Assembly: GCA_016872605.1 (NCBI GenBank)
Contig: VGZI01000002.1
Coordinates: 8,089-72,088 of the forward strand
DNA length: 64,000 nt
Source of the DNA: Planctomycetota bacterium
GTDB taxonomy: Bacteria; Planctomycetota; Planctomycetia; Gemmatales; Gemmataceae
Reading direction: 5' to 3'
Position numbers and translations under genes: made by a program. The notes beneath the pieces were generated by a model. That model saw only the letters and a list, made by a program, of their open reading frames with translations, ran no database searches and was not told the DNA's origin. Shown one piece after another: positions 3,223-42,301 of the stretch; within the stretch, counting starts at the first letter, position 1; each line of letters starts with the position of its first letter.

Positions 3223-4365
3223 ATGTGGAAGTTCCTTCCCTACGTTGCGAAGAACCTGTGGCGCGACCGGACGCGGACATTCCTGACGGTAAGCGGGGCA
3301 GCCGTCGCGATGTTCGTGTTCACGGTCGTCGGCGCCGTTCAGGAAGGCATGGCCAGTTTGAATCGAGGAACCCAGACGGAGCGCACGTTGATCGTGTTTC
3401 AGGCCAATCGCTTCTGCCCTGGCACGAGTCGTTTGCAGGAAGATTACGCTCGGACCATTGCCAAGCTTCCGGGCGTTCAGGAAGCCGTCCCGATCAAGGT
3501 GTTCATGAACAACTGCCGCGCGAGTCTTGACCTGGTCGTTTTCCACGGTCTGCCGCCCAAGCAGCTGCAAAAGATTCGCGATCTCAAGCTCAGCGCCGGC
3601 GATTGGCCCAGCTTCGAGAAACAACGTGACGCAGCCGTCGTCGGGCAGTCCTTGGCGAACCGACGTCGTCTCTCGGCTGGCCAGCGGTTCTCGATCGGCG
3701 AGGTAACGGTCACGATCGCTGGCGTCTTCACGGCGACCAACGCAGCCGAGGAGAGCTTCGTCTACACTCACCTCGAGTTCTTGCAACGCACCCCCGGCAT
3801 CAGTTCCGTCGGAACGGTCACACAAATCGAAGTCCTTCTCGCCGCCGGGTCTGACCCGATGGCCATGTGCAGGACGATTGACGAAAAGTTCCGAGGCGGT
3901 CCGATTCGAACGGACACGCGGCCCAAAGGGGTCTTTCAATCACGAGCCGTCGGCGATCTCGCGGACTTGATTGGGTTTGCCCAGTACCTGGGCTACGCCT
4001 GCGTCGTTCTGGTTCTGACCTTGGTCGGCACAACGACGCTCATGGCCGTTCAGGATCGTGTCCGCGAGCATGCCATCTTGCAAACGCTGGGCTTCACCTG
4101 GCAGTGCATCTTCGGTCTCGTGATGATCGAAAGCCTGATCGTCAGCCTGACCGGCGGCGCCGTCGGCATCGGCGCTGCGCTTGCAGTTCTTTCTTGGAAT
4201 GGATTGGCAGTCGGCTCCGAAGGTGTGACGATCGCCTTCTCGACGTCGCCGATGCTTGCATTCATTGGGATGACGGCCACTTCGATCGTCGGTCTTGTCG
4301 CGGGCGTCCTGCCTGCATGGACCGCGGCGCGAGCGGAGATCGTCGAATCGCTTCGCAGTTTATGA
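3223..4365 (+). CDS. ABC transporter permease, FtsX/MacB family
   Basis: N-terminal TM helix, a large periplasmic loop and three C-terminal TM helices. Starts 3 nt after the ATPase stop. Confidence 0.85.
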   Translation: MWKFLPYVAKNLWRDRTRTFLTVSGAAVAMFVFTVVGAVQEGMASLNRGTQTERTLIVFQANRFCPGTSRLQEDYARTIAKLPGVQEAVPIKVFMNNCRASLDLVVFHGLPPKQLQKIRDLKLSAGDWPSFEKQRDAAVVGQSLANRRRLSAGQRFSIGEVTVTIAGVFTATNAAEESFVYTHLEFLQRTPGISSVGTVTQIEVLLAAGSDPMAMCRTIDEKFRGGPIRTDTRPKGVFQSRAVGDLADLIGFAQYLGYACVVLVLTLVGTTTLMAVQDRVREHAILQTLGFTWQCIFGLVMIESLIVSLTGGAVGIGAALAVLSWNGLAVGSEGVTIAFSTSPMLAFIGMTATSIVGLVAGVLPAWTAARAEIVESLRSL

Positions 4366-16310: not shown

Positions 16311-16319
16311 TGCAATCAG

Positions 16320-16450
16320 CAGCCTAATCTCGTTCCGCAGGGAACGAGTACGGGGGACCCAAACGGATCGCTTCGCGCGGTCCATGGGGCGCAGGTCGCA
16401 AGACCGGGGCACTTTCAAGCCCTAGCCCGTCAGCTAACCTCGTCGGCAAG
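16320..16450 (+). promoter_or_regulatory. c-di-AMP riboswitch candidate (ydaO/kimA class)
   Basis: CCUAAUC, then hairpin 16329-16348, then GUACGGGGGACCCA (16348-16361). GCAA-capped helix at 16394-16405. GCCCGUCAGCUAACCUCGUCGGC at 16425-16447. These blocks match the conserved ydaO motif as I remember it. Confidence 0.7.
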
Positions 16451-16543
16451 TCCGCGGTTGTACTGCGGGCGGGTTTGAAAGGGCCACCTTTCTTCATTGC
16501 AAGTGCCCCTGTTCTTTCGTCTCCGCGCGCTCGGAGGCAACCC

Positions 16544-40588: not shown

Positions 40589-40970
40589 CACATAGAATGA
40601 GAGTGCCCAGTTTCTCGGTTCCCCACAAGGAGGGCCGGGGCCGATTCTGCCATGGACGTTTTCTGCCCGACTGTCAATAGCTCCCGCCCGGCTTCCGGCT
40701 CGGCAGGAGCCTCGCCCTCCCGTAGCATCGCCAAGCGCTTTTTTTGACGAATGCTAGCAGGGTCAATCATGGACACGATTCGTTTTATCACGCTCCATCC
40801 AGGGCATTTTCACGCGTCCCTGGTGCGGAAGGAGATGGTCGACGAGGTCTCGCCCCTCGTTCACGTGGTTGGGCCGCTCGGACCCGACCTCATTGCGCAC
40901 CTGGGGCGAATCGCGGGTTTCAACACGCGCGGGTGTTTCGCCGACAACGTGGGAGTTAGAAGTACACGCG

Positions 40971-41069
40971 GGCCGGCTCCTAGTAGTGGCGAGTGACGAG
41001 TGGAGAGTGGCGAGAGAGGAAGTCCAATCTTATTCTCGCCACTCTCCACTCGCACTCGCCACTCTCCAC
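40971..41069 (-). repeat. Hairpin element type A, inverted copy
   Basis: 40981-41069 is the exact reverse complement of 41372-41460 (89/89). The identity extends 10 nt further (GGCCGGCTCC). The arms are heptamers TGGCGAG TGACGAG TGGAGAG TGGCGAG. Confidence 0.9.
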
Positions 41070-41156
41070 TGGCATGAGCGTGCTGGCCGACAAGCCGTGG
41101 ATTCTCGTGCCGGAGGACCTGCCCAAGCTGCGGCGAGCCCTTGACCTAGCCGCCGT

Positions 41157-41244
41157 GTGAGTGACGAGTGGTGAGTGCGAGTGGTGAGAATAAGATTGGA
41201 CTTCTTCTCTCGCCACTCACCACTCGTCACTCACCACTACCATG
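41157..41244 (+). repeat. Hairpin element type B, copy 1
   Basis: Identical to 41530-41617 (88/88). Shares the loop AATAAGATTGGACTTC with type A. Confidence 0.9.
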
Positions 41245-41371
41245 TTTGCAGCGGGCACTGGTGCAGGACGAGGCCACGTTCGGCACGATGATCGCCGGCT
41301 CACCGGAGGATCCGGGCGTCTCGATGGAGAGCGTTCATTTTTTGAAGAAGCTGGTGGCGGACGCTGGTCCG

Positions 41372-41470
41372 GTGGAGAGTGGCGAGTGCGAGTGGAGAGT
41401 GGCGAGAATAAGATTGGACTTCCTCTCTCGCCACTCTCCACTCGTCACTCGCCACTACTAGGAGCCGGCC
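41372..41470 (+). repeat. Hairpin element type A, forward copy
   Basis: See 40971-41069. Confidence 0.9.
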
Positions 41471-41529
41471 TGGTTCTTCGACGTTCATCAGCAAGGCGAG
41501 GCGCTCAGCGACGTGGGCACGACTTGGTG

Positions 41530-41617
41530 GTGAGTGACGAGTGGTGAGTGCGAGTGGTGAGAATAAGATTGGACTTCTTCTCTCGCCACTCACCACTCGT
41601 CACTCACCACTACCATG
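41530..41617 (+). repeat. Hairpin element type B, copy 2
   Basis: See 41157-41244. It is a direct repeat 373 nt downstream of copy 1. Confidence 0.9.
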
Positions 41618-42301
41618 GTTGTGCAGTGGATGTTGCACCCCCATCGGCCGGTCGATGTCGATCGCGATGTCAGCATCATGTCCGCCAAGCGTTGGCCGAC
41701 GGTATTGTCGAAGGCCGACTTGCAGGCGATCACCGGCGAGGCCACGCTGCCGCGCTACCTCAACGACACGCTCGATGGCGAGGACCTGCATTATTACTGC
41801 AACTCACTGGTGAATTACTCAATCCAAGGCGTCCATGTCAGGCTCAACGTGCTCTGGGATTTCGAGTCCAGCATTGGCGGCGGCGACACGCACTTCGCGG
41901 TCTTTCGCGGAAGCCGATCGCGCGTCGAAGTCCGCCAGGGGCAGGCGGAGAAGTTTCAGCCGGAGCTATTTATCACGCCGAACCGTATGATGGATTACGG
42001 CTTGGTTCGTCGCGCCGTGGAGCTGCGAGTGCAAGCGATTCAGCCGGAGTATCCGGGGATCAGCGTGATCGACCTGGGCACGCATTTCCGCATCGCAATC
42101 CCCACGGAGTTTCGCGTCGGGCATGAGGCTCATTTCGCGCAGGTCACCAAGCAATTCCTGCGCTACGTTCGCGGCCAGGATCCATTACCCGCTTGGGAGA
42201 AGGCCAATATGATGGCCAAGTATTTCACCACGACACGCGGCGTCGAAGCGAGCCGAACGGCGTCGAATCGGGGCCGGTGACCAACCAGCGAGCGGCAGTA
42301 C

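Follow-up and report, generated by a model that had tools for sequence, protein, structure and literature searches.

A recently dead dehydrogenase gene in a member of the Gemmataceae has probably become a nest for a dispersed family of REP/MITE-like hairpin elements, and has been reshaped by template switching or break repair. The gene lies in the window, the 64,000-nt stretch of DNA analyzed here, where four hairpin elements of ~90-100 nt each all sit inside this one PF16490 pseudogene. Overall, this is fairly ordinary repeat accumulation in a dead gene. Two features are nonetheless notable, and we consider them modestly interesting: the arrival of elements is coupled with loss of target sequence, and one event reads as a polymorphic, fully mappable template switch.

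A dehydrogenase pseudogene and its hairpin elements

An oxidoreductase-like gene had been recognized in the initial annotation of this DNA, and profile searches bear this out: PF16490 matches the C-terminal ORF at E=3e-64 and the joined N-terminal fragments at 1.7e-15. Intact homologues run to thousands, at ~434 aa and mostly from Planctomycetota and Gemmataceae, the best of which—P0001, 435 aa—is 64% identical. Aligning the fragments to these intact homologues, a check proposed at the outset, placed the junctions in P0001 numbering and disclosed no target-site duplications (Table 1). The fragments follow one another in N-to-C order in frames 2,0,1,2,2,2, as originally read and as confirmed by tblastn of homologues onto the DNA. 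The roughly 50 residues thought to be missing at the first two junctions prove to be 36 + 20 = 56 aa relative to P0001, residues 69-104 and 131-150 being absent from the DNA. The frameshift noted earlier is likewise real, with 10 nt in place of 9 in 4/4 assemblies that cover 40931-40940.

Strong as the match to the PF16490 profile is, the gene has no full ORF of ~434 aa left, owing to one frameshift, four elements and 56+ missing residues. The frameshift, the in-frame stops and the loss of 56+ conserved residues recur in all assemblies examined; the host gene is therefore dead in every one of them. Its death was recent, and this is not an old, eroded pseudogene, since the fragments resemble P0001 (0.78-0.95) no less than intact homologues do (0.82-0.90); for the C-terminal part, the corresponding values are 0.73 and 0.74. 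FJ303_00770, annotated as a hypothetical protein of 221 aa, is a remnant of this gene. The N-terminal 850 nt contain every one of the five lesions, leaving the C-terminal 666 nt as an uninterrupted ORF. The window differs from another assembly (L001, described below) at 3 positions in 1.56 kb, too few for a selection test of this ORF.

Table 1. Features of the dehydrogenase pseudogene and the elements within it (window coordinates; residues in P0001 numbering)
Feature	Position	Strand	Remarks
Pseudogene, PF16490 (Oxidoreduct_C) / Gfo-Idh-MocA-like 'predicted dehydrogenase'	40769..42280	+	Pfam, homologue search, tblastn
Fragment 1 (MDTIRF...GFNTR)	40769..40930	+	Frame 2; residues 1-54, 42/54 identical
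+1 frameshift, gggtgtttcg	40931..40940	+	10 nt vs 9 nt (3 codons) in homologues
Fragment 2 (11 aa)	40941..40973	+	Frame 0; residues 58-68
Element copy 1, A-type inverted	40971..41072	-	Window-specific allele; replaces residues 69-104
Fragment 3 (MSVLADKPW...LDLAA)	41074..41154	+	Frame 1; residues 105-130
Element copy 2, B-type	41151..41244	+	Replaces residues 131-150
Fragment 4 (LQRALVQ...KLVADAGP)	41246..41371	+	Frame 2; residues ~151-190
Element copy 3, A-type	41372..41461	+	Read in frame, terminates in in-frame TAG
Fragment 5 (EPAWFFDVHQQGEALSDVGT)	41462..41521	+	Frame 2; residues ~194-213
Element copy 4, B-type	41522..41625	+	Right terminus CCATGGTTGTGC; in-frame TGA and TAA; replaces ~7 codons (HLVDLVM)
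C-terminal remnant ORF, 221 aa, intact	41615..42280	+	= P0043, NCBI hypothetical protein FJ303_00770, Planctomycetes MAG

The four elements form two perfect pairs, and the initial annotation had described both correctly. The A elements are exact reverse complements (40981-41069 and 41372-41460, 89/89), with an identity that runs 10 nt further (40971-41069 against 41372-41470) and that the repeat finder reports as 102-nt arms at 99%. The B elements, 41157-41244 and 41530-41617, are direct repeats identical at 88/88 positions. Both types share the loop GAGAATAAGATTGGACTTC, of which the 64 kb window has four occurrences and shuffled sequence an expectation of 0.00, and their arms were found, as described, to be built of heptamers in period-7 arrays of 4-5 units per arm. 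Each element is predicted to fold into a very stable hairpin, with energies between -52 and -69 kcal/mol and z-scores between -6.4 and -10.5. In agreement with the earlier reading of the remaining ~63 kb, no further copy in the window was detected by a profile HMM that drew on 25 family copies.

The element boundaries needed revision. The elements extend beyond the hairpins as first delimited: CGCCGTG, at the left end, and CCATGGTTGTGC, at the right end, had been taken for gene flank, but both motifs recur at unrelated loci and are therefore element sequence, not gene sequence. The 10 nt that flank the A pair are, on the other hand, genuine gene sequence (E-P-A codons). No intrinsic terminators or sigma-70 promoters were found in the region, and a scan of the whole window against Rfam at gathering thresholds returned no match to the element. 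The only Rfam match in the window is a c-di-AMP riboswitch (ydaO/yuaA type, RF00379) at 16311-16463 (+), which scores 58.2 bits against a gathering score of 38 over the full length of the model.

Individual copies differ in their relation to the family and in what they have done to the gene. The exact form of the A sequence was found at this locus only, and copy 3 is truncated at both ends relative to full-length family members. Copy 2 has 93 nt (41152-41244) that are exactly identical at three other loci (L015, L016 and L021), and copy 4 has a 94-nt stretch identical at L021; the CCATGG terminus of copy 4 provides the ATG of the downstream ORF. In order, copies 1-4 have replaced 36, 20, ~1-6 and ~7 codons of gene sequence. 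No target-site duplication is visible at the four pseudogene sites, and gene residues are missing at 4/4.

The left terminus of B and E1 elements (E1 being a further subtype, introduced below), CCCGCCGTGTGAGTG, repeatedly gives the upstream frame an in-frame GTG TGA stop, as at window 41155-41160, L001 ~9370 and L022 ~4650 (-). The L022 element appears to be placed exactly at the 3' end of a gene, giving it its stop codon.

Could the elements be skipped in expression, as introns or translational bypass elements, leaving the gene functional? Some boundaries are superficially GT...AG, and copies 3 and 4 span a multiple of 3 nt between their flanking fragments. Removing the elements does not restore the protein, however: the Rossmann-domain segments corresponding to P0001 69-104 and 131-150 are absent, and a separate +1 frameshift lies outside the elements. 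The same elements are mostly intergenic elsewhere, and they match nothing in Rfam. We give this explanation virtually no credence and reject it on the ground that conserved coding segments are physically absent.

Independent assemblies and two alleles at the first site

Four assemblies, one from ENA (ERZ27247963) and three from JGI (3300020193, 3300020197 and 3300020200), contain the locus; they derive from different samples within a single lake series. Three of these (one ENA, two JGI; L001, L002 and L004) span the region at ~99.8% identity to the window and reproduce the frameshift, the missing segments and copies 2-4. The initial annotation had raised the possibility of an assembly artefact, in which hairpin repeats caused spurious copies to appear, or true ones to merge, during assembly or PCR of a gene that is truly intact or otherwise arranged. 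These repeats do break or scramble short-read assemblies of the organism. For instance, the fourth assembly of the locus, L003, starts inside copy 4, and in L027 (1-300) a B element links sequence that flanks the L015 copy on the left to sequence that flanks the L016 copy on the right, through either genuine recombination or a chimeric join made at the repeat in assembly. The window also differs from the three other assemblies at copy 1. Recovery of the same copies 2-4, frameshift and missing segments from different samples makes an artefact very unlikely and disposes of it for the overall structure, with the window form of copy 1 standing outside that rejection. For copy 1 itself, the window junction (GCGGGC|CGGCTCC) shares only 4 nt (GGCC) with the alternative, which is too short for a mis-join in a de Bruijn graph. 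ORFs specific to the window allele (40769-40996 and 41168-41461) were looked up in other assemblies, and none is on record there.

The difference at site 1 defines two alleles. In L001, L002 and L004, 51 nt (17 codons) more of the gene are kept, PDYLARFAKEQAGNVVV, and the site has a forward element of another subtype, E1, with a B-like left arm and an A-like right arm; the inverted A pair is absent, and this allele looks ancestral. Breakpoint mapping showed that the window and L001-type alleles are equal up to 40974 and equal again from 41046, and that window 40971-41069 reproduces, in reverse complement, copy 3 and the adjoining 10 nt of its gene flank. In essence, the window's copy 1 is a local, templated inverted copy of copy 3, made with deletion of 51 nt of the gene. 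Its left junction has a 4-nt GGCC microhomology (40971-40974), and its right junction a 24-nt arm homology (41046-41069) with the E1-type element of the other allele. These junctions carry the signature of template switching or break repair, not of transposition. Exact ancestral junctions are definable for site 1 only, by way of the L001 allele, and microhomology at the junctions of the other sites is gauged from protein alignments only. Databases hold no intact allele or empty site, the best intact homologue being the 64% identical P0001.

The same comparison bears on whether the repeats act as a programmed recombination switch that regulates the gene, an idea put forward in the initial annotation. 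Its geometry fits—a perfect inverted pair that could flip a segment of 296-302 bp, and a perfect direct pair that could delete 373 bp—but little else does. The inverted A pair is absent in three of the four assemblies, neither a flipped nor a deleted isoform was seen in the four assemblies or in metagenome contigs, and there is no recombinase gene among the neighbours. Nor does any arrangement of the segments restore the frame, the frameshift and the 56+ missing conserved residues being present in every allele, such that none offers an ON state. A phase-variation switch thus fails on every point tested (isoforms, recombinase and functional ON state), and we regard it as extremely unlikely.

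The element family at other loci

A search for the element's copy number, also proposed in the initial annotation, was run and located a dispersed family in the same lake metagenome series. The loop with true heptamer arms is present on 22 contigs of the Ga01941xx series, representing ~15 distinct other loci and 18 copies, and a profile search added variant-loop copies beside some of these loci. That the Ga01941xx contigs represent one organism is judged from their identical repeats and similar GC (0.59-0.63), not from binning. Most copies occupy short gaps between long high-GC3 ORFs, or gene 3' ends, in an ORF-based approximation. The family is dispersed, mostly intergenic and clustered, and it contains a recently expanded subfamily of identical copies.

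Two of these properties alter how the pseudogene should be read. First, at least two copies lie within ~1.1 kb of each other at 5/15 other loci, and clustering is therefore a trait of the element family. A targeted insertion hotspot, one of the explanations first considered, is unsupported, although the clustering that prompted it recurs in the family at large. Second, the 81-nt core of the B type is exactly identical at five unlinked loci (L015, L016, L017, L021 and L029), which marks the perfect B pair as part of a recently expanded subfamily; the pair need not be a local duplicate. Local amplification inside a dead gene, another early proposal, consequently stands in part: copy 1 did arise here as an inverted copy in a gene that is dead, but the family occupies ~15 other loci and the B pair matches five unlinked copies. 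The initial annotation had also held that an abundant, dispersed element in an old pseudogene would make the locus ordinary decay; the element is indeed dispersed genome-wide, but the pseudogene is recent, not old.

Family members are ~90-110 nt long, with ~35-bp arms of degenerate GAGTGNN heptamers around a conserved ~19-nt loop, and some have outer GTAG...CTAC ends. The subfamilies are mosaic and their ends ragged: they comprise B, E1, an outer-repeat form GGCACGCCG...CGGCGTGCC, and a full-length form GCCGCCTGAAGTAGTGG...CCACTACTTCAGGCGGC. GTAGTGG...CCACTAC is found in A-type and full-length members (L019, L024 and window copies 1 and 3), and the left end of the B and E1 types starts CGCCGTGTGAG. 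Among 185,579 species-representative genomes, the loop 19-mer gave three chance matches without hairpin arms (Lachnospiraceae or Paludibacteraceae), and plasmid and phage records gave no match to the element. As far as such searches reach, a family with this loop appears to be confined to the present population.

Other repeats and remnants came to light in the same contigs. A second gene in decay lies at L031 3560-4700. What is left of it matches only positions 6-61 of the 196 in the metallo-beta-lactamase profile PF00753; a loop-less element fragment interrupts it at 3778-3826, full hairpin copies stand on either side at ~3563 and ~4645, and a DUF5615 ORF adjoins it. The same genome may contain a second REP-like family, to judge from L019 4834-4977, where another GTAG-tagged inverted repeat, GTAGGGTGCGTGCAACGCA...TGCGTTGCGCGCACCCTAC, encloses a hairpin copy with a variant loop (GAGAATAAGATCGGACTTC). 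The copy next to it has a 16-nt direct repeat, CCGGTAGCAAAAAGTA, on its two sides, as part of a tandem arrangement. Finally, another short repeat, also dispersed and with a 26-nt core that does not vary, CGGCTCGGCAGGAGCCTCGCCCTCCC, sits at window 40696-40721 (+), in the 180-nt spacer immediately upstream of the pseudogene start. It recurs as an inverted pair in L025 (13515-13534(-) and 13573-13592(+)) and twice in L031 (4048-4067 and 4289-4308), one of these apparently in frame within the DUF5615 ORF.

Candidate routes of spread and known systems

The closest known systems are REP, BIME and REPIN sequences, and on the strength of this resemblance we regard the element as REP/REPIN-like, its membership being putative. 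REP families, including GTAG-tagged and intragenic REPs, are documented together with RAYTs in the PVC superphylum, Planctomycetes included (Di Nocera et al. 2013, PMC3733652), and REPINs are REP doublets that form hairpins and are mobilised by RAYT transposases (Bertels & Rainey 2011, PMC3116915). The elements share with these systems a dispersed distribution of ~100-nt hairpin repeats that are mostly intergenic, occur as singlets and clusters, include identical-copy subfamilies, are occasionally intragenic and, in some members, have GTAG...CTAC ends. They differ in that their arms are ~35-bp tandem arrays of degenerate heptamers and not two short self-palindromic REPs (20-40 bp), in their long, conserved loop, in the left ends of the B and E1 subfamilies, which have no GTAG tag, in the failure to find a RAYT in the ~260 kb examined here, and in the loss of target DNA that goes with arrival. 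Measured against the definition of such repeats, the family has the dispersed, stable hairpin and the mainly extragenic location, and it lacks the 20-40 bp REP unit or doublet.

These likenesses lend some weight to ordinary transposition, whereby non-autonomous MITEs or REPINs moved in trans by a RAYT or IS200/IS605-type enzyme would have inserted repeatedly into the dead gene, with a preference for existing copies, and later unrelated deletions would have trimmed the flanks. A dispersed family with many identical copies is what such movement would yield; some members have GTAG...CTAC REP-like ends, REP families and RAYTs are known in Planctomycetes (PMC3733652), and the clustering resembles that of BIMEs and REPINs. 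Against this stand the lack of target-site duplication at 4/4 sites, with gene bases missing at all of them, and element end lengths that differ among copies. In addition, copy 1 of the window includes 10 nt of another copy's unique flank, which transposition would not carry. Searches for the machinery point the same way, if weakly: three Y1/HUH transposase probes gave no phmmer match below E=0.3 among all ORFs in ~260 kb, a small part of the genome. No parent autonomous IS sharing the terminal inverted repeats was present in the retrieved loci, and the flanks of the other copies show no consistent duplication. We consider transposition of this kind an unlikely account of the locus.

Other repeat families offer partial parallels. 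Bacterial MITEs, such as the Correia/NEMIS elements of Neisseria, ERIC and Nezha of cyanobacteria, resemble the elements in size, terminal inverted repeats, stable hairpins, non-coding content and multiple copies, whereas the family here has no fixed-length target-site duplication, no known parent IS, and termini that are ragged and mosaic. Membership among MITEs fails on the pseudogene sites, where gene residues are missing, not duplicated, at 4/4. Rickettsia palindromic elements (RPEs) likewise are palindromic repeats within protein-coding genes, but they insert in frame and their host proteins remain functional. The elements described here bring stops (TAG, TGA and TAA), frame changes and deletions, and their host gene is dead; an RPE-type element is rejected on these disruptive insertions and the deletion of conserved segments. 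Cyanobacterial STRRs are simple tandem arrays of 7-nt units, a unit length shared with the present arms, although here two inverted heptamer arrays flank a conserved loop and form a hairpin.

A closer precedent for copy 1 is found not in a repeat family but in a mutational process. Template-switch or quasipalindrome mutation and SbcCD-triggered palindrome repair give an inverted templated tract, junctions of microhomology and of longer homology, and loss of the intervening DNA. The window's copy 1 shows this expected signature; what sets it apart is that the exchange took place between members of a mobile-looking repeat family, where it may aid local multiplication.

On this basis, the preferred reading of a recently dead gene reshaped by template switching or break repair can be given a tentative mechanism. 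Long hairpins would stall replication or be cleaved, and repair or restart would then copy another family member as template, entering via arm homology and resolving at microhomology. The route may be template switching, or synthesis-dependent repair with microhomology end-joining. Each cycle in unselected DNA would erode the flanks and could add or convert copies, which would explain how copies came to replace gene sequence and to accumulate side by side. The break-and-repair step is a model, not an observation. The first copies, for their part, may have been delivered by a trans-acting transposase, for example a RAYT, or have arrived by the same templated process from ectopic copies.

A more far-reaching version, which we hold to be decidedly doubtful, is that hairpin repeats multiply without a transposase altogether: where a hairpin caused a break or stalled a fork, repair would copy a family member over the target, with entry through arm homology and exit through microhomology. 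If true, such 'copy-choice' spread would be recorded naturally in the pseudogene and its polymorphic first site, and repeats would have a way to proliferate other than RAYT- or IS-mediated transposition.

To our knowledge, REP-like elements have barely been studied in this phylum. One recently dead gene here records five separate events, all involving a single family of hairpin repeats, and a templated inversion-copy whose ends can be fully mapped separates two alleles of the population. The locus is therefore a tractable case in which to ask how REP-like repeats spread and cluster, whether by the action of a transposase or by repair-templated copying.
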